The notes: generated by a model from the letters alone, not told the origin. A stretch of DNA of 64,000 nt from Actinomycetes bacterium (GCA_031361905.1 JANLRV010000121.1:9545-73544), one strand, 5' to 3'. Shown: positions 2,157 through 55,246, counted from the first letter of the stretch. Numbers and translations: made by a program.

Positions 2157-3371
2157 TCATGCGATTCCCGCTTCCCGCAGCTCGGCGATCTCGCCGGCCG
2201 TGAGGCCGAGCTCGCCGAGCACGTCGTCGTTGTCGGCCCCCACGGTCCAGCGCGCCCCGTGCCGCACGCCTCCGGGCGTGCTCGCGAGCTTGGGGACGAC
2301 GCCGTTCGCGGCGATCGTGCCGTGCACCTCGTCCTCGTACTCGACGACGAGGCCCCGCTCGCGGAACCACGGGTCGGCGTGCACGTCGGCGGCCGTGTAG
2401 ACCGGCGCGCAGACGACGCCCGCCGCGTTGACCTGCTCGTCCAGCTCCGCCGCCGTGTGCTTGGCCGCCCACTCGCCGATCAGCTCGTCGAGCAGCGCCT
2501 GGTGCTCGCCGCGCGCGGCGTGGTCGGCGAAGCGCGGGTCATCGCCCCACTCCGGATGGCCCATCAGCGCCGCGAGGCGCTTCCACAGGGTGTCGTGGTT
2601 CGCCGCGATCACGACCCACTTGCCGTCGCGCGAGCGGTAGACGTTCGAGGGCGCGATCTTCGGCAGGAACGGTCCGGTCGGCTCGCGCACGAAGCCGCAC
2701 TTGTCGTACTCGACGACCATCGCCTCGGTCATCGCGAAGCACGCGTCGGCGATCGCGGCGTCGACGACCTGCCCGGTCGCGCCGCGCGCGTCGCGCGCGT
2801 AGAGCGCCATCAGGATCCCCTGGAACGCCGATTGCGCGGCCAGCGTGTCGCCCAGCGAGATGCCGCAACGCGGCGGCGCCTGGTCGGGGTAGCCGTTGAT
2901 GTAGCGGAGACCGGCGATCGCCTCGCCTCCCGCAGCGAACCCCGCGCGATCCCGGTAGCTGCCCGTCTGGCCGTAGCCGGAGATGCGCGCGTAGATGCAC
3001 CCCGGGTTGACGGCGTGCACCTGCTCGGGCCCGAGCCCCCACCGCTCCATCGTGCCGGGACGAAAGTTCTCGACGACGACGTCGGCGGTCGCGCACAGCT
3101 CGGCGGCGATCTCCTGGCCGCGCGGCTCGCGCAGGTTGAGCGCGACGGAGCGCTTGTTGCGCGCCAGCACCGACCACCAGAGCGAGTGGTCGTTGTGCCG
3201 CAGCCGGCCCCACTCGCGCATCGGATCGCCAGCGGGCGGCGCCTCGACCTTGACCACGTCGGCGCCGAAGTCGCCGAGCAACGTGCCGACGAACGGGCCG
3301 GCAAGCAGCTGCCCGAACTCGATCGCCCGGAGGCCCGTGAGCGGGCCCGCGGAGAGCGCGTCAGCGACCAT
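2157..3371 (-). CDS. family III (CaiB/BaiF) CoA-transferase
   Basis: 404 aa. The opening LRAIEFGQLLAGPFVGTLLGDFGADVVKVE is typical of CoA_transf_3 proteins. Its ATG overlaps the GntR stop by 11 nt. Confidence 0.9.
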   Translation of the reverse strand: MVADALSAGPLTGLRAIEFGQLLAGPFVGTLLGDFGADVVKVEAPPAGDPMREWGRLRHNDHSLWWSVLARNKRSVALNLREPRGQEIAAELCATADVVVENFRPGTMERWGLGPEQVHAVNPGCIYARISGYGQTGSYRDRAGFAAGGEAIAGLRYINGYPDQAPPRCGISLGDTLAAQSAFQGILMALYARDARGATGQVVDAAIADACFAMTEAMVVEYDKCGFVREPTGPFLPKIAPSNVYRSRDGKWVVIAANHDTLWKRLAALMGHPEWGDDPRFADHAARGEHQALLDELIGEWAAKHTAAELDEQVNAAGVVCAPVYTAADVHADPWFRERGLVVEYEDEVHGTIAANGVVPKLASTPGGVRHGARWTVGADNDDVLGELGLTAGEIAELREAGIA

Positions 3372-5639: not shown

Positions 5640-6152
5640 ATGAACCTGCAGTCACGTCCATGGCAGCTCGGGTGCAACATCGGCATTGCGGTCGCCGTCG
5701 CGCTCCTCGCGGCGGCGTGCGGGTACGACAACCGGGGAGAGCCGCGCGCGCCCGCCGAGGAACTGTCGGCGCCGAACCTCGGCGACGTGCATGTCTACTG
5801 CGTGGAGAGCCAGAACGTGCGCGTCACGGCGTGCTCGGTCGACCTCGCCGCGGGCGCGGGCCACTCGCCCGCGGAACTCCAGCGCTGGTGGCTGCGCGCC
5901 GCGCACGCGCTGCACGCGGCCGGGACGTTCCACTACATGGACGGCGACTGGCGGTTCGAGGGCGTGTTCATCGAGGCTCGCGACAACGACGGCGCGAAGG
6001 TCGACTACGGCTGGGGCTGCCGCGGGGACGAGCGCCACGCCAACGCCGACGTGGTGAAGCTGATGGTCGACCGCATGCCCGGCGGGCCGAGCGGGATCGG
6101 GTCGCTCGCGGCGGCGCAGGCGAAGGGCTGCACGATCGGACGCGTTCCCTAG
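5640..6152 (+). CDS. hypothetical lipoprotein
   Basis: ATG at 5640 gives MNLQSRPWQLGCNIGIAVAVALLAAACGYD, a signal peptide with lipobox LAAAC. I recognise no family. Confidence 0.6.
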   Translation: MNLQSRPWQLGCNIGIAVAVALLAAACGYDNRGEPRAPAEELSAPNLGDVHVYCVESQNVRVTACSVDLAAGAGHSPAELQRWWLRAAHALHAAGTFHYMDGDWRFEGVFIEARDNDGAKVDYGWGCRGDERHANADVVKLMVDRMPGGPSGIGSLAAAQAKGCTIGRVP

Positions 6153-6216
6153 ACGGGCGGTGCACGGCAGGGGCAGACCCGCTCAAATGCACCGTCCCAG
6201 CCAGATCGTGCGCGCC

Positions 6217-20082: not shown

Positions 20083-20258
20083 GCTTAAGAAGCTCTAACA
20101 GAATGCCTCGCGGCGTCTGGCGGCGTCCCGCCGGCGCCTGTCGTGTGATCGCCTCTTGCGGTTCCGTTTGGCATAGGAGCCGCTTCGAGGCCATCACACG
20201 ACAGGCTTGCGAGCCACTCGCCAGCCGCTCACGAATCATTCTGTTAGACCTTCTAAGC
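20083..20258. repeat. 176-bp imperfect palindromic repeat element (MITE/REP-like)
   Basis: Termini gcttaagaagctctaacagaatg and cattctgttagaccttctaagc are inverted copies. The arms pair imperfectly along their whole length (for example cctgtcgtgtgatcgcctc / gaggccatcacacgacagg). It fills the LLM-PPOX intergenic gap. Confidence 0.7.
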
Positions 20259-24418: not shown

Positions 24419-25255
24419 ATGCCCTACGCCACCCTGCCCGACGGGATCCGCCTGTACTACGAGTTCACCGGCCCCGAGGACAAGCCGGTGATCCTCCAGT
24501 TCGGGGGATCGCTGTTCGGACGGCAGAACTTCGGCATGGTCAATGACGGCTTCCGCGAGAGCTTCCGCCTGCTCTCGTTCGACGCGCGCGGCTACGGCCG
24601 CTCGGATGTGCCAAGCGAGAAGTACACCATCGAGGGCTGGGCCGACGACGGAGCCGCGCTGCTCGACGCCGTCGGGCTCGAGCGGGTGCTCGTGCACGGC
24701 ACCTCGATGGGCGGGATGATCGCGCTCGCCTTCGCCTGCAAGCACCCCGCGCGCTGCATCGCGGCCTGCCCCGACGTCGCGTTCGCCCGCCCGGACGTGC
24801 ATCGCAAGGCGATCTTCCGCTTCTGGCGGCGCTGCGCCGAGACGATGAGCTGGGACGACTTCGCCGACCACGTGACCACGCAGGCCGTCGGGTGCCACCA
24901 CCTCGAGAAGCCCGAGGGCGAGAACACCTTCGAGATGGTGCGCGAGATCACGCGGCTGAACTCGACGTTCACCGTGCGGCAGGCGTGCCTCGCGATGGAG
25001 GAGATGGACCTCGAGCCGCTCGTCCGCACGCTCGAGCGCCCGATCCTGATGACGAACGGGACCTACGACATGCTCTGCCCGCCGGTGCTCGCGAAGTCGG
25101 GCTTCTCGGCCCGCCAGATCGCCGAGCTGAAGCCCCAGCTCGCCCGGCTGCAGGAGTTCCCCGAGATCGGTCACGCGGATCTCCTCGAGTGCCCCGACGA
25201 GGCGGTCGAGATCGTCACCGCGTTCTTCCACGAGGTGCTCGCGCGCGAGCAGTAA
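24419..25255 (+). CDS. alpha/beta-fold hydrolase
   Basis: 278 aa with nucleophile elbow HGTSMGG (GxSxG). SD GGAGA. Confidence 0.85.
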   Translation: MPYATLPDGIRLYYEFTGPEDKPVILQFGGSLFGRQNFGMVNDGFRESFRLLSFDARGYGRSDVPSEKYTIEGWADDGAALLDAVGLERVLVHGTSMGGMIALAFACKHPARCIAACPDVAFARPDVHRKAIFRFWRRCAETMSWDDFADHVTTQAVGCHHLEKPEGENTFEMVREITRLNSTFTVRQACLAMEEMDLEPLVRTLERPILMTNGTYDMLCPPVLAKSGFSARQIAELKPQLARLQEFPEIGHADLLECPDEAVEIVTAFFHEVLAREQ

Positions 25256-25275
25256 GAAGCTGTGAGAGCTTCTTA
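25253..25275. terminator. perfect 9-bp stem / 5-nt loop hairpin between convergent genes
   Basis: TAAGAAGCT-gtgag-AGCTTCTTA, starting in the hydrolase stop codon. It shares CTTAAGAAGCT with the terminus of the 20083-20258 element. Confidence 0.5.
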
Positions 25276-25277
25276 AG

Positions 25278-26036
25278 TCAGACGACGCGCGCCCGCCAGG
25301 CGTGCCGGACGACGCTCCAGTAGAACGCGCCGCTCGCAGCGGACGCGTCGATCTCGGCCTCGAAGCGCGCGAGATCGTCGGCCGAGACGGTTCCGGACCG
25401 CTCGAGCGCATGGCGGAATCCGGGCCAGTTGTGCGCGATGAACGTGTCACCGCCCCACTCCGTCGCGTCGAGCACGACGACGCGCCGCTCCTCCGGCACG
25501 AGGCCGGCCGCCTCCAGCCAGCCGCGCAGGCGCCGCCCGGCCCAACCGTCGGGCTTGCCATCGGCCCAGGCCTGCACGACGCGTCGCCCGAGCTCGCGAT
25601 CGGCGACGTTGAAGCCCTGCGTGTCCCAGTCGGTGTCGGCGGCGAGCACCATCCCGCCGGGCCGCACGATGCGCGCCGCCTCGCGCAGCGCGGCGACGGG
25701 ATCCTCGAGATACTCGAGCACCTGCACGAGGCACGCCGCGTCGTGTGAGCCGGACGCGAGCGGGAGCGCGAGCGCGTCGGCCTCGACGAGCTCGCAGCCG
25801 AGGCCGCGCGCATCGACGGCATCGAGCATCGCGCGCGCCGAATCGACTGCGGTGACGTGCGCCCCGCGTGCGTGCAGGGCGGCGGCGAATGCGCCGGGCC
25901 CGCAGCCGATGTCAGCGACGCGCCAGCCCGACTGCGGGCCGAGCAGGTCGATCTGGAGCTCGCGCACGGCGGAGACATCGGGCGCCGCATACGCCCGTGC
26001 GACGCGCTCGGCGACGCGCGCCGAATTCCAGCTCAT
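25278..26036 (-). CDS. class I SAM-dependent methyltransferase
   Basis: ATG 26036 (ATGA overlap with the upstream stop). Motif I VADIGCGPGAF. Confidence 0.85.
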   Translation of the reverse strand: MSWNSARVAERVARAYAAPDVSAVRELQIDLLGPQSGWRVADIGCGPGAFAAALHARGAHVTAVDSARAMLDAVDARGLGCELVEADALALPLASGSHDAACLVQVLEYLEDPVAALREAARIVRPGGMVLAADTDWDTQGFNVADRELGRRVVQAWADGKPDGWAGRRLRGWLEAAGLVPEERRVVVLDATEWGGDTFIAHNWPGFRHALERSGTVSADDLARFEAEIDASAASGAFYWSVVRHAWRARVV

Positions 26037-27271
26037 CGAAGCTCGGTCGCGTTCGCCTCGAGCATGCGGGCCACGAGGATCTGCCGCGACTCGAGCAGCG
26101 GGACCTCGGGAGCACCGTAGGCGCCGACCTGCAGGAGCAGGCTCCCATGCACCCACAAGAGGTCGTCCCGGAGGCGTTTGCCGGGTCGGATGACGCGCAT
26201 TCCGGCCGGAACGGAGCTCGCCGGCGTGGCGCGAACGCCGGGCTGCCGCGCGGTCGCGCGCAACGCTGCCTGCGCCGCGCGCGGGCTCGGGAACGCCCAC
26301 GCGTACGCCACGTAGCTGCCGGCGATCTGCGCGACCGAGATGACCTGCGTCGAGGCGCCGCGCAGCCCGAGCGTGCGATAGCGGCGCCCGAGCCGTAGCG
26401 CGGCCGGGTCATCGCGCAACCGGGCGCGCGCGTCGGGCCGGGCGCGGACCTGCCACGACCTCGTGTCGATGCCCCCAGGGAGATCGTTCTCGACGATCCG
26501 CAGCGAGCTGAGACGGCCGACGAGCGTCGTCGGGTCATAGCTCGGCGGCGACGCCGGCTCGGCGCCGCCGATCAGCGGCTCGGCGCTGATCTTGGCGTCG
26601 ATCGCGCGCGCGACGCGGTCGCGCTCGGCGACCATCGACCCGCCGCCCTGCTCGGAGCCGGCAGTCGCGCGCACGAGCGCGCGGCCACGCACCCAGAGCA
26701 GATCGCTCACGCCCGTGCCGGGCAGCGAGAGCATCACCGCGCCGGGAGCGAAGTCGCTCGGGCTGGCCCGCAGGCCGGAGAGATCGCGCAGGGCCCGGAG
26801 GCTCCGGAAGGCGCCCTCGGGGCGGCGAAACGCCCAGAGCACGACCGCGACGTTGCCCGGCCGTGAGCGGCCCCGCAGGTTCTGGGCCTTGCCGAGCACG
26901 AAGCCCCCCGCGAAGAACTCGGTGTTCATCGGCGAGTTCGGCGTCTGGCCGGGCAGCGGCCAGCGGAACGTCGCCGCGGGATCGGGCGGGTAGCTGTTGT
27001 CGAACGTGTTGGAGTTGATCGTGAAATCGAGCTTCTGCGCCTCGGCGGTGCTGAGGAAGAGCGCCGGCAGGACGGCGTCCATGCGCGCGAGCAGCGGCTT
27101 CGACGAGCTGACGGACGTCGCTGCCCTGACGGGCGCCGCCTCGGCCTGCCGGCTTGGCGCCTGCGCGAGCAGGCTTCGCGTTGCAAGCATCGCGACCGTC
27201 GCGGTTCCGAGCAGCGCCATCGCAGCGAGTGCCACGCCGAGCGTCCGACGCACCACCTGTCGTCGCGGCAT
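26033..27271 (-). CDS. hypothetical secreted protein with two internally repeated domains
   Basis: Signal-peptide-like N-terminus MPRRQVVRRTLGVALAAMALLGTATVAMLA. Internal repeat visible (..DLLWVRGRALVRATAG.. and ..DLLWVHGSLLLQVGAYG..). Confidence 0.65.
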   Translation of the reverse strand: MPRRQVVRRTLGVALAAMALLGTATVAMLATRSLLAQAPSRQAEAAPVRAATSVSSSKPLLARMDAVLPALFLSTAEAQKLDFTINSNTFDNSYPPDPAATFRWPLPGQTPNSPMNTEFFAGGFVLGKAQNLRGRSRPGNVAVVLWAFRRPEGAFRSLRALRDLSGLRASPSDFAPGAVMLSLPGTGVSDLLWVRGRALVRATAGSEQGGGSMVAERDRVARAIDAKISAEPLIGGAEPASPPSYDPTTLVGRLSSLRIVENDLPGGIDTRSWQVRARPDARARLRDDPAALRLGRRYRTLGLRGASTQVISVAQIAGSYVAYAWAFPSPRAAQAALRATARQPGVRATPASSVPAGMRVIRPGKRLRDDLLWVHGSLLLQVGAYGAPEVPLLESRQILVARMLEANATELR

Positions 27272-27279
27272 CGCCTCAG

Positions 27280-27593
27280 TCTAGATGAGTGATTGCGTTT
27301 CGTCGGGGGTTCTGGGGTGTGTCTCGGCTGGTTCTGGCGTTCTGCTCGCCGCGAGTCGGCCCCCGGTCCGCTGCTCGAGAGGCGTGGCGGCGGGTGCGGG
27401 CCGTCTCGCGGCGAGCGTCACTCCGGGGTTTCCGGGCTTGTCGTTGCGTCTCTGCAGCGCCTGCGCCCGGAAACCCTCTTCGCAGATCTGCGTTGATCGC
27501 AGATCAGCTCACATCGCTGTCAAGCTTCGCTTGACAGCTGACGCAACGATCCAGCGCCCAGAACCCCCGACGAAACGCAATCACTCATCTAGA
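27280..27593. mobile_element. 314-bp element with perfect 37-bp terminal inverted repeats and nested hairpins (MITE-like or structured intercistronic RNA)
   Basis: 27280-27316 is the exact reverse complement of 27557-27593 (core ctagatgagtgattgcgtttcgtcgggggttctgg). Internal stems are listed in the corresponding finding. No credible ORF. Confidence 0.7.
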
Positions 27594-27977
27594 TCAGCCG
27601 GTGCTCTCGTCCGCGAGGATCTTGCGGGCGGCGCGGAACGCCGAGACCCCGGCCGGCACGCCGGCGTAGACGGTCACCTGCACGAGCGTCTCGCGCAACT
27701 CGTCAGCCGTGCAGCCGTTGCGCAGCGCACCCCGGAAGTGCAGCTCGAACTCCTCCATCCTCCCGAGCGTCGCCAGGATGCAGAGGTTGTTGAGGCTCCG
27801 TTGCCGGTCGTCGAGCGCCGTCCCCTCGCCCCACACCTTGCCCCAGCAGTACTCGGTGACGAACTGCTGGAACTCGCTCGAGAACGAGTCGGCACCGCCG
27901 ATCGCCCGATCGACGTACTCGTCGCCGAGCACCTTGCGTCGCTTCGCGAGGCCCAGCTCGAACAGTCGGTCGTCCAC
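27594..27977 (-). CDS. carboxymuconolactone decarboxylase family protein (PcaC-like)
   Basis: 127 aa. ..FQQFVTEYCWGKVWGEGTALDDRQRSLNNLCILATLGR..ELRETLVQVTVYAGVPAG.. is classic gamma-CMD family sequence. GTG start after GAGAGGA. Confidence 0.85.
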   Translation of the reverse strand: MDDRLFELGLAKRRKVLGDEYVDRAIGGADSFSSEFQQFVTEYCWGKVWGEGTALDDRQRSLNNLCILATLGRMEEFELHFRGALRNGCTADELRETLVQVTVYAGVPAGVSAFRAARKILADESTG

Positions 27978-34372: not shown

Positions 34373-34627
34373 CGTCCGGCCCTACCGCGCGGCCGGAGCA
34401 TCCAGACGGTGCGAAACGGCCGAGAGCTTCCAGAGGGGACGCTAGCGAGCGGGGCGCCGATCGCGACGATCGTGCTCCGGGCTGCGCTGTCTGGCCGAGG
34501 CGTCCGGCCGCGCCTGCGACAGCGCAGCCCGTCCTGACGGCCACCAGCAGGCCCGCCACGAACCCACCAGACGGTGGATCCAGGCTCAGCTCCAGACGAG
34601 CGCCGACGCTACCAGGCGGGTGCCAAA

Positions 34628-54190: not shown

Positions 54191-55246
54191 ATGGTGGCGT
54201 CCAGAAATGCCGACCTCGTGCTCGAGGGCGGCGGCGTCAAGGGCATTGCGCTCGTCGGGGCGATCAGCGTGCTCGAGGAGCACGGCTACCGCTTCCCGCG
54301 CGTCGCAGGCACGAGCGCGGGCGCGATCATCGGAGCCTGCGTCGCAGCCGGCCTGCACGCGCCGGCGATGCGCAAGATCATGGAGGCCGTCGACTACCGG
54401 CGCTTCAAGGATGAGGGTCTGATCGACCGCTTCGGCCCGCCCGGCAGGGGGCTCTCGCTGCTCTTCGAGCAGGGGATCTTCGAGGGCGACTACCTGCGCG
54501 GCTGGCTGGGCGCGCTGCTCGCCGAGCACGGCGTCGAGACGTTCGCCGACCTCGCGCTCGAGGAGCCCGAGCTGAAGCTCGACGAGGCGATTCCCGAGCT
54601 GCAGCGCTACCGGCTCGTCGTGATGGCGTCGGATCTCTCGAGCGGACGGCTCGTCCGCCTGCCCTGGCACTACCGCGAGCTGTACGACCGCGAGCCGTCG
54701 AGGCAGCGCGTCGCCGATGCCGTGCGGGCCTCCATGAGCATCCCGTTCTTCTACGAGCCCGTGCGGCTCGTGCACGGCGATCAGCGCGTGCGCGCGCTGC
54801 GCGATCTCCACCGCAGCGAGTCGTGGCTCGTCGACGGCGGCCTGCTCTCGAACTTCCCGGTCGACGTCTTCGACCGGCCGGCCGCGGCGGGCGCGCCACG
54901 CTGGCCGACGATCGGGATCAAGCTCTCGCTGCGCGATCGGCACGGCGCGCCGCCCCACGAGGTGCACAGCACGATCGACCTCGTCAAGCGGATGGTCCAG
55001 ACGATGACGGGGTTCTACGACCAGATGCACATCGACGATCCGGGAACGACGGCGCGCACGATCTTCGTCGACACGCTGGGCGTGCGGGCGACCGACTTCG
55101 AGATCTCGCCGCAGACCCAGCGCGCGCTCTACATGAGCGGCCGCAGCGCCGCCCGCCAGTTCCTGCGCGCGTTCGACTTCGACGAGTACGTGGCCGTGCA
55201 CCGGACCCCCGGCGGCACGCGCGCGCTCGCCGGCAGCGCCCGATGA
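54191..55246 (+). CDS. patatin-like phospholipase
   Basis: ATG 54191 after GGGAGG. Oxyanion LEGGGVKG, nucleophile GTSAG (GxSxG), catalytic Asp in LVDGGL. Confidence 0.9.
   Translation: MVASRNADLVLEGGGVKGIALVGAISVLEEHGYRFPRVAGTSAGAIIGACVAAGLHAPAMRKIMEAVDYRRFKDEGLIDRFGPPGRGLSLLFEQGIFEGDYLRGWLGALLAEHGVETFADLALEEPELKLDEAIPELQRYRLVVMASDLSSGRLVRLPWHYRELYDREPSRQRVADAVRASMSIPFFYEPVRLVHGDQRVRALRDLHRSESWLVDGGLLSNFPVDVFDRPAAAGAPRWPTIGIKLSLRDRHGAPPHEVHSTIDLVKRMVQTMTGFYDQMHIDDPGTTARTIFVDTLGVRATDFEISPQTQRALYMSGRSAARQFLRAFDFDEYVAVHRTPGGTRALAGSAR

Follow-up and report, generated by a model that had tools for sequence, protein, structure and literature searches.

The Correia elements (NEMIS or CREE) of Neisseria appear to be the closest known system, in architecture and in probable consequences, to the repeat family described here. 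Both are small and non-coding, with long inverted ends and a conserved core; both carry a terminal TA with target duplication, insert beside as well as within genes, and have no known parent transposase (PMC2229807, PMC2649163, PMC10969869). Correia elements come in length classes that differ by an internal block (∼107 versus 155 bp), and they are co-transcribed with their neighbours, the end-to-end stem of the transcript being a substrate for RNase III (PMC2229807, PMC2649163, PMC10969869). In contrast, the present family shows no sequence similarity to them and belongs to a different phylum, is two to three times longer (215-306 bp), possesses several nested hairpins rather than one core, and is known in a handful of copies, versus 100-250 per Neisseria genome. 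The element in the window (the whole 64,000-nucleotide stretch of DNA analysed) has ends that read GATGAGTGATTGCG... and a core unrelated to that of CREE, the resemblance being architectural only (PMC2649163). Cleavage by RNase III, the creation of promoters and the binding of host factors, as described for Correia elements, would be no more than putative for the present element.

BOX and ERIC repeats combine a fixed frame with optional internal modules, as does the present family. Their transcripts fold into long stem-loops (PMC3049150, PMC2229807), as would be predicted here too, but BOX has neither inverted ends nor target duplication, and both BOX and ERIC lack any sequence relationship to this family. 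RUP, from Streptococcus pneumoniae, is likewise a non-coding, TA-inserting MITE, attributed to an IS630-family transposase, that of IS630-Spn1 (PMC2229807); however, it is 107 bp long, with short inverted ends matching a known IS, whereas the ends of the family described here span 33-44 nt. The IS630/Tc1-mariner elements themselves (ISY100, IS630) are comparable in their TA target, 2-bp duplication, transposase-bound inverted ends and rare non-TA insertions (PMC2170065), but are 1.0-1.4 kb long and encode a transposase, whereas the window element encodes nothing. ISY100, of the IS630 family, inserts at TA and duplicates it, with 2 of 39 insertions in non-TA dinucleotides (PMC2170065).

The repeat in the window is very probably a non-autonomous DNA transposon (MITE). 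To judge from its sequence, it represents a new and apparently undescribed MITE family of ordinary mobile-DNA type, unrelated in sequence to Correia or RUP and set apart from both by its greater length, its several exchangeable hairpins, its rarity and its uncultured actinobacterial lineage, and a search of published papers found no description of MITEs for the Gaiellales or Thermoleophilia. It provides a clean, well-bounded example of such a family in this abundant, almost uncultured soil lineage, and matters modestly, for annotation, target choice, assembly and possible follow-up.

The insertion and its empty sites

The element lies between two genes of the minus strand, and its sense is defined as the direction of these flanking genes. 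The features of the locus are listed below, with the strand where one applies.

26033-27271, minus strand: downstream gene, 412 aa, no Pfam family, N-terminus resembling a signal peptide
27282-27283: TA target-site duplication on the downstream-gene side, from comparison with L017 and L019
27284-27589, minus strand: element proper, 306 bp, ends GATGAGTGATT...AATCACTCATC (GATG...CATC)
27284-27316: terminal inverted repeat (TIR) arm beside the downstream gene, 33 nt, perfect
27310-27344: three direct copies of GTTCTG (27310-27315, 27331-27336, 27339-27344)
27557-27589: TIR arm beside the stop codon of the upstream gene, 33 nt, perfect
27559-27564: CAGAAC, one inverted copy of GTTCTG, in the opposite arm
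27590-27591: TA target-site duplication on the upstream-gene side, from comparison with L017 and L019
27594-27977, minus strand: upstream gene, carboxymuconolactone decarboxylase (CMD) family, PF02627, E = 9e-19

The two inverted arms, 27280-27316 and 27557-27593, are 37 nt long and 100% complementary, and with up to 3 mismatches allowed this 37-nt arm occurs at only these two places in the 64-kb window (0.00 expected, from 100 shuffles). The initial annotation of this DNA had read the first arm as the exact reverse complement of the second, and had delimited a 314-bp element on that basis. The repeat is confirmed, but the element proper is shorter: it measures 306 bp, and its inverted ends are 33 nt long. 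On each arm, the 4 outermost nucleotides lie outside the element, and correspond to the duplicated TA and two flanking bases of the target; the arm looks 4 nt longer than the element's own ends because the target is itself a palindrome, TCTAGA. The boundaries were set by the empty sites described below (L017 and L019), and by the termini common to the copies in L013/L028, L017 and L018. The end sequences GATGAGTGATTGCGTTTCGTCGGGGGTTCTGGG and GATGGTTGATTCCACGGGATCG can be used as queries.

The TGA stop codon of the CMD gene abuts TCTAGA, and 8 nt (CTGAGGCG) separate the repeat from the ATG of the 412-aa gene, whose GAGG (27274-27277, numbered on the plus strand) and start codon are intact, within the original spacer. 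The gene placement proposed initially, with a stop at 27594, a start at 27271 and 8 nt containing GAGG before the ATG, is therefore correct. Without the insertion, the gap between the two genes amounts to 14 bases, and the element is inserted at a TA within it.

The named homologues of the 412-aa protein come from Gaiellales MAGs, and the host of this window, which has a G+C content of 71%, is therefore probably a member of the Thermoleophilia, namely an uncultured, Gaiellales-like soil actinobacterium. Exact-protein look-ups retrieved about a dozen assemblies of near-identical strains carrying the same locus, and the element is present in all of those with an identical CMD protein, as far as their contigs reach.

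Empty sites, which the initial annotation had proposed looking for, were found at the orthologous loci of two related metagenome contigs, L017 and L019, whose orthologues of the 412-aa protein are 80% and 83% identical, respectively. In both, the CMD gene is followed directly by the 412-aa homologue, with 43-46 nt between them, and the only sequence linking the two genes is ..CTAGACTGAG..ATG. The empty junctions read ..GGCTAGACTGAGCCGGATG in L017 and ..CATTAGACTGAGCCGGATG in L019, compared with ..TGATCTAG[ATGAGTG...CACTCAT]CTAGACTGAGGCGATG in the window. Removal of 27284-27589 and one TA from the window yields TGATCTAGACTGAGGCGATG, matching both contigs; equivalently, their junction ..CTAGACTGAGCCGGATG is the window sequence minus 27284-27591. 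As read from these aligned junctions, the comparison shows that the element entered a pre-existing CTAG, and duplicated its central TA.

These empty sites also bear on the second reading offered initially, in which the repeat would be an evolved, structured intercistronic RNA of this operon (an attenuator, a processing site or a protein-binding site) and not mobile. Such an RNA could account for the exact fill of the gap between the cistrons with the ribosome-binding site left intact; however, orthologous operons exist without it, and a target duplication flanks it. The remark that it resembles no known RNA family is borne out, as a search of Rfam at E <= 10 left the element without a match, and the whole window likewise gave none at the gathering score.

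No recognisable coding capacity was found. The sense frames of the element are interrupted by stops, and a 236-aa antisense ORF has no Pfam match; the element-encoded part of this ORF (103-aa translation) had zero homologues among 5.8 billion proteins, in a search aimed at mis-called ORFs over other element copies. A promoter and terminator scan found no sigma-70-like promoter and no sense-strand terminator, with a single weak terminator-like site on the antisense strand only.

Copies at unrelated loci

Further copies, whose search had also been recommended initially, were identified at three unrelated loci. I scanned one genome per species for a degenerate end pattern (185,579 species), which returned one true relative (L013) and three chance matches. 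In L013, which is a MAG contig labelled Chloroflexota, a cupin gene (105 aa) and a hydantoinase gene are separated by a 248-nt copy with ∼91% identity to the window element. Here, the TAG stop codon of the cupin gene is the TAG of the CTAG. Cupin protein look-up provided further alleles of this locus (L028, L029 and L035). The L028 allele has nearly perfect ends, with 27 of 27 outer bases, whereas that of L029 (the same contig as L013) carries three uncompensated substitutions in its ends; this looks like neutral decay.

In L035, a Logan contig from 2 samples, positions 1250-1275 of the cupin-hydantoinase locus read CTCTAGATGAGTGACTGTAAGG: the element is gone except for its first nine bases, and the right flank is seven bases short. 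I considered that this might be a never-occupied empty site, but because the first 9 nt of the element remain, a deletion between two GTGA motifs is a better explanation. In L038, L043 and similar contigs, whose cupin protein is 87% identical, a 431-aa aminotransferase gene is found between the cupin and hydantoinase genes, in convergent orientation and overlapping the cupin stop by 4 nt. The element-carrying lineage (L028/L029) does not have this gene, a loss that may or may not be linked to the insertion.

Both the window locus and the cupin locus were recovered from the ENA sample ERZ27314300 (L001, the window's strain, and L028) and from SRR20217173 (L007, L015 and L037). One population therefore probably possesses at least two copies, possibly within a single genome.

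A blastn comparison of the element with the fetched orthologous loci revealed two older relatives, in L017 and L018. The L017 copy (5950-6164) is 215 nt long, with 44-nt ends at 91% complementarity (nhmmer E = 8e-60; blastn versus the window element E = 7e-13). It lies between convergent methyltransferase and hydrolase genes, flanked by a GA/GA duplication, and comparison with L019, L018 and the window strain confirms what the site looked like before the insertion, which provides a second pair of filled and empty sites (the L017 copy versus L019 and L018). The insertion occurred three codons before the stop of the alpha/beta-hydrolase gene and replaced its last three codons (L017 6150-6170), so that the C-terminus changed from ..EVLAAE(stop) to ..EVLDG(stop), the new TGA being supplied by the inverted end of the element. 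The L018 copy (2974-3202) is 229 nt long (blastn E = 2e-28), has TA/TA flanks, and lies in a divergent promoter region.

All copies start with GATGRNTGATT and end with its complement, and the ends of the relatives are 44-46 nt long and 74-91% complementary. CAGAAC or GCAGAA(N)CGCC is also found near the corresponding end in L017 and L018, and I suggest that the GTTCTG repeats near the ends are putative transposase-binding sites.

The initial annotation could not tell a duplicated CTAG from a duplicated TA, and the additional copies settle this question in favour of 2 bp. The flanks are TA/TA in the window and in L018, GA/GA in L017 and TA/GA at the cupin locus, where one base has probably mutated; a 2-bp duplication is thus found in 4 of 4 loci, TA in three and GA in one, and two of the TA duplications lie in CTAG. 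Longer duplications of the IS5 or IS481 kind (4-bp CTAG or 6-bp TCTAGA) were rejected, because GATG...CATC is constant in all copies and in L018, whose left flank is ATAG and whose right flank is CTAG, the two sides have only the central TA in common.

The element thus displays several characteristics of a MITE: small size and absence of coding capacity, TIRs, a target duplication seen in filled and empty sites, and dispersed copies at four loci. The gene contexts of these are diverse, with co-directional genes in two, convergent genes and overlap with a coding end in one, and divergent genes in one. This diversity, together with the empty sites, already largely refutes an RNA evolved for the operon, at least as far as sequence comparison goes. 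It is true that the window and cupin-locus copies are both in sense orientation between co-directional genes, as such an RNA would be, but two of two is not significant, and homologous copies occur in unrelated contexts that include a coding 3' end.

IS427-group elements, which belong to the IS5 family, have ends beginning with GA or GG and generate 2-4-bp duplications. It is possible, if rather unlikely, that an enzyme of this kind, or another outside the IS630/Tc1-mariner group, mobilised the MITE. The GA at the start of the ends and the 2-bp size of the duplication would suit such an enzyme, no IS630-type transposase was seen near any copy, and one copy has GA duplicated instead of TA, which is also a point against an IS630-style mechanism. 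However, no IS5-type partner was seen either, and TA is duplicated in three of the four cases, twice within CTAG, the classic IS630 target. The rare non-TA insertions documented for ISY100 (PMC2170065) fit with three TA and one GA. A TA-targeting element in the style of IS630/Tc1-mariner is the best reading, a putative superfamily assignment that is derived from the target.

No transposase or autonomous partner is present in any of the fetched locus tables. The scan of 185,579 species representatives found no autonomous relative, and no IS with similar ends was found among 72,556 plasmids, against which blastn with the whole element and the two end types gave no match or chance-level matches. 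An nhmmer profile of the four members detected no further copy in the window and all 49 loci, so that four loci are known in the window and roughly 150 kb of related contigs, a low copy number for a MITE. JGI metagenome contigs gave 0 matches, both with the junction of inverted end and body and with a 20-base degenerate core fitting all four members, and the scans of viral contigs gave chance matches or none. As found so far by these sequence searches, the family appears small, and confined to Gaiellales-like actinobacteria of a few metagenomes.

Modular architecture and folding

The interior of the element is composed of the following stems and modules.

27344-27362 with 27398-27416: stem, 19 nt, 95%
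27426-27437 with 27465-27476: stem, 12 nt, perfect
27482-27492 with 27498-27508: stem, 11 nt, 91%
27516-27525 with 27529-27538: stem, 10 nt, perfect
27441-27450 with 27540-27549: long-range pair, 10 nt, perfect, left arm within the loop of the 12-bp stem
27426-27476: conserved core, 12-bp stem GGGTTTCCGGGC/GCCCGGAAACCC and 27-nt loop holding GCGCTGCAGAGACGCAACGA (sense)
27482-27538: optional two-hairpin module, 11-bp and 10-bp stems
27344-27416: optional 19-bp hairpin module, variable 35-nt loop
27441-27450: alternative-pairing arm, in the loop of the core stem, pairing with 27540-27549

All pairings read by eye in the initial annotation were recovered. Its 18-bp stem with 1 mismatch (27344-27361/27399-27416) extends to 19 nt at 95%, and its 8-bp stem (27485-27492/27498-27505) is the core of the 11-nt, 91% stem; the perfect 12-bp and 10-bp stems, and the 10-bp long-range pairing with its left arm in the loop of the 12-bp stem, are as described. 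For the latter, an alternative structure or a pseudoknot had been proposed, and the first proposal is favoured here. In an H-type pseudoknot combining the 10-bp pair with the core stem, a linker of only 3 nt between the two 3' arms would have to cross a 10-bp helix, for which it is too short, and a full pseudoknot is sterically unlikely; on this geometry, the two are better read as competing pairings. The long-range pairing is absent from the minimum-energy fold, and while intact in L013/L028 it is weakened by indels in L017 and L018.

The element folds with -208.9 kcal/mol on the minus (gene-sense) strand (z = -18.3 versus shuffled sequences), and with -216.8 kcal/mol on the plus strand (z = -15.2). 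A very stable fold, with z = -18, might be expected of an RNA that serves the operon, but the antisense strand folds as well or better, and sense and antisense energies are about equal in all four family members. Together with the varied contexts (convergent, divergent and at a coding 3' end) and the lack of an Rfam match, this makes the structured-RNA reading of the initial annotation very improbable. From these comparisons I conclude that the structure is likely a property of mobile DNA, and not that of a dedicated regulatory RNA.

The organization of the four members is modular. Common to all are the outer 11 nt (GATGRNTGATT), GTTCTG/CAGAAC near the ends, a central stem GGGG(A)TTTCCGGGC / GCCCGGAAA(T)CCCC, and a loop containing GCGCTGCAGAGACGCAWCG. 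The two-hairpin module (27482-27538) is shared by the window and L018 copies, where it is 79% identical, and is absent from L013/L028 and L017. The 19-bp hairpin (27344-27416) is found in the window and at the cupin locus, with an unrelated 20-bp hairpin in its place in L017 and nothing in L018. An apparent short form at the CMD locus, in L010, was rejected: its interior is identical to that of the cupin-locus copy (L030, L031), and the scaffold is probably a chimeric join of the two copies.

In a five-sequence alignment, double changes were observed in 12 of the 33 pairs of the end-to-end helix and in 2 of the 12 pairs of the core stem, but in none of those of the two small hairpins, with only 5 sequences compared. 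Between the window and L018, changes in the small hairpins break or restore pairs without pattern, and across members the hairpins decay by uncompensated changes; those compatible with G-U pairing are few, too few for testing. The co-varying ends are no argument for an RNA, because covariation is expected of transposon termini read by one transposase.

The core is the best conserved block, with 76-88% identity between distant members versus 58-67% for the inverted ends. This is a point against a simple MITE, as it is not obviously required of a purely selfish element. One could envisage that the host has taken over a MITE, with the core or the rod formed by the long stem serving as a signal for regulation or processing in the operon mRNA, or being bound by a host protein at the DNA level. 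All four loci retain the core stem, to which L017 has added one A-T pair with a base on each arm, and the element occurs in every contig with an identical CMD protein; Correia elements provide a precedent, with IHF binding and RNase III control (PMC2649163, PMC2229807). Yet the core could equally be a site required for transposition, or simply be inherited from the parent element. The four loci have no gene context in common, folding shows no strand asymmetry, and a population variant (L035) lacks the element at the cupin locus. I therefore regard take-over by the host as improbable. Similarly, there is only a slim chance that the conserved stem-loop (27426-27476) is a functional module, whether as a site for a host nucleoid protein or the transposase, or as an RNA signal, with the rod sparing the operon from polarity or tuning the gene ratio. 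Were it so, copies would swap their optional hairpin blocks with one another, and the family would be to actinobacteria what the regulatory Correia elements are to Neisseria.

Target choice and possible consequences for the operon

IS630 and IS870 have a preference for CTAG. This tetranucleotide is ∼12-fold under-represented in the window, with 14 observed versus 170 expected, and the TA dinucleotide stands at 0.38 of expectation. Two of the 14 CTAGs flank the element, and several others coincide with the ends of listed ORFs, as TAG stops. The position of the element at a gene end can be explained by this, because the rare CTAG mostly coincides with TAG stop codons. In high-G+C genomes, an element seeking TA or CTAG would thereby be funnelled to stop codons and intercistronic gaps. 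The window shows a strong tetranucleotide bias, with ratios of observed to expected of 0.08 for CTAG and 0.07 for TTAA, but of 4.5 for GATC and 4.9 for TCGA; an enrichment of 6-bp palindromes was considered and rejected (7 versus 10 expected).

In L018, a different and unrelated repeat (type B) has taken the CTAG upstream of the 412-aa gene that the window element entered, and the site is therefore an insertion hot spot, struck by two different elements in two relatives. The type B repeat is ∼165 nt long, with imperfect ends (AGTGKCCTNTC...) and TA flanks. Its two copies in L018 (1-108 and 3203-3368), one of which is that at the CTAG of the window element, are 96% identical and 3 kb apart, and the second directly abuts the copy of the family described here. 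A 59-nt remnant of type B, 80% identical, is present at 34388-34444 in the window, in the 313-nt stretch that separates the genes for a CoA transferase and an MFS transporter, and ends at the CTAG at 34442-34445.

I propose that a transposase acting in trans bound the inverted ends, and perhaps also the GTTCTG repeats, then excised the element and pasted it into TA, as IS630/Tc1-mariner enzymes do. In a 71% G+C genome where CTAG is rare, and would survive mostly as a TAG stop with a preceding C, an enzyme seeking TA or CTAG would land at gene ends, which may be why the element appears to fill an intercistronic gap. The element is probably transcribed within the operon mRNA, because no sense-strand terminator is predicted. 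In the transcript, the 33-37-bp perfect stem would fold the element into a rod, at whose base no more than about 10 nt would lie between the CMD stop codon and the GAGG and ATG downstream. Keeping the stop codon and ribosome-binding site close in this way may account for tolerance of the insertion. A perfect duplex of 33-37 bp is also a likely substrate for RNase III, to judge from the Correia precedent. I regard such RNA effects, themselves argued from analogy, as by-products of the insertion and not as the element's reason to exist, and it is plausible that they are secondary to its mobility. If the core or the long stem does affect mRNA processing, this locus would provide a natural system for studying operon polarity in Actinomycetota.

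The element also has consequences for assembly. Most short-read contigs with the CMD or cupin gene (L002-L008, L030-L037) cover 8-170 nt of the element before they break off, in many cases after ∼30 nt of the inverted end. MAG assemblies break here because the perfect inverted repeat exceeds the assembler k-mer and is shared between copies, and elements of this kind thus fragment MAGs. L002 has four substitutions in its end; these could reflect true divergence, or else the contig could be joined to a third copy.

Two further observations were made elsewhere in the window. ARAGORN called a 96-nt tRNA-Ala(CGC) on the minus strand at 54308-54403, while Rfam reported no tRNA anywhere in the window at the gathering score; the call is over-long, and is probably false, or else represents an unusual tRNA. 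A third MITE-like element is located at 20085-20258, with 23-nt ends that are 87% complementary (AGAAGCTCTAACAGAATG...) and a 20-bp internal hairpin, and has a higher A+T content than the neighbouring DNA. One further occurrence of its 12-nt terminus, TTAAGAAGCTCT, is at 25265-25276, within a 9-bp mini-palindrome (TAAGAAGCT/AGCTTCTTA, 25253-25276) in the spacer where the methyltransferase and hydrolase genes converge, which may be a footprint or a collapsed copy of this third element.
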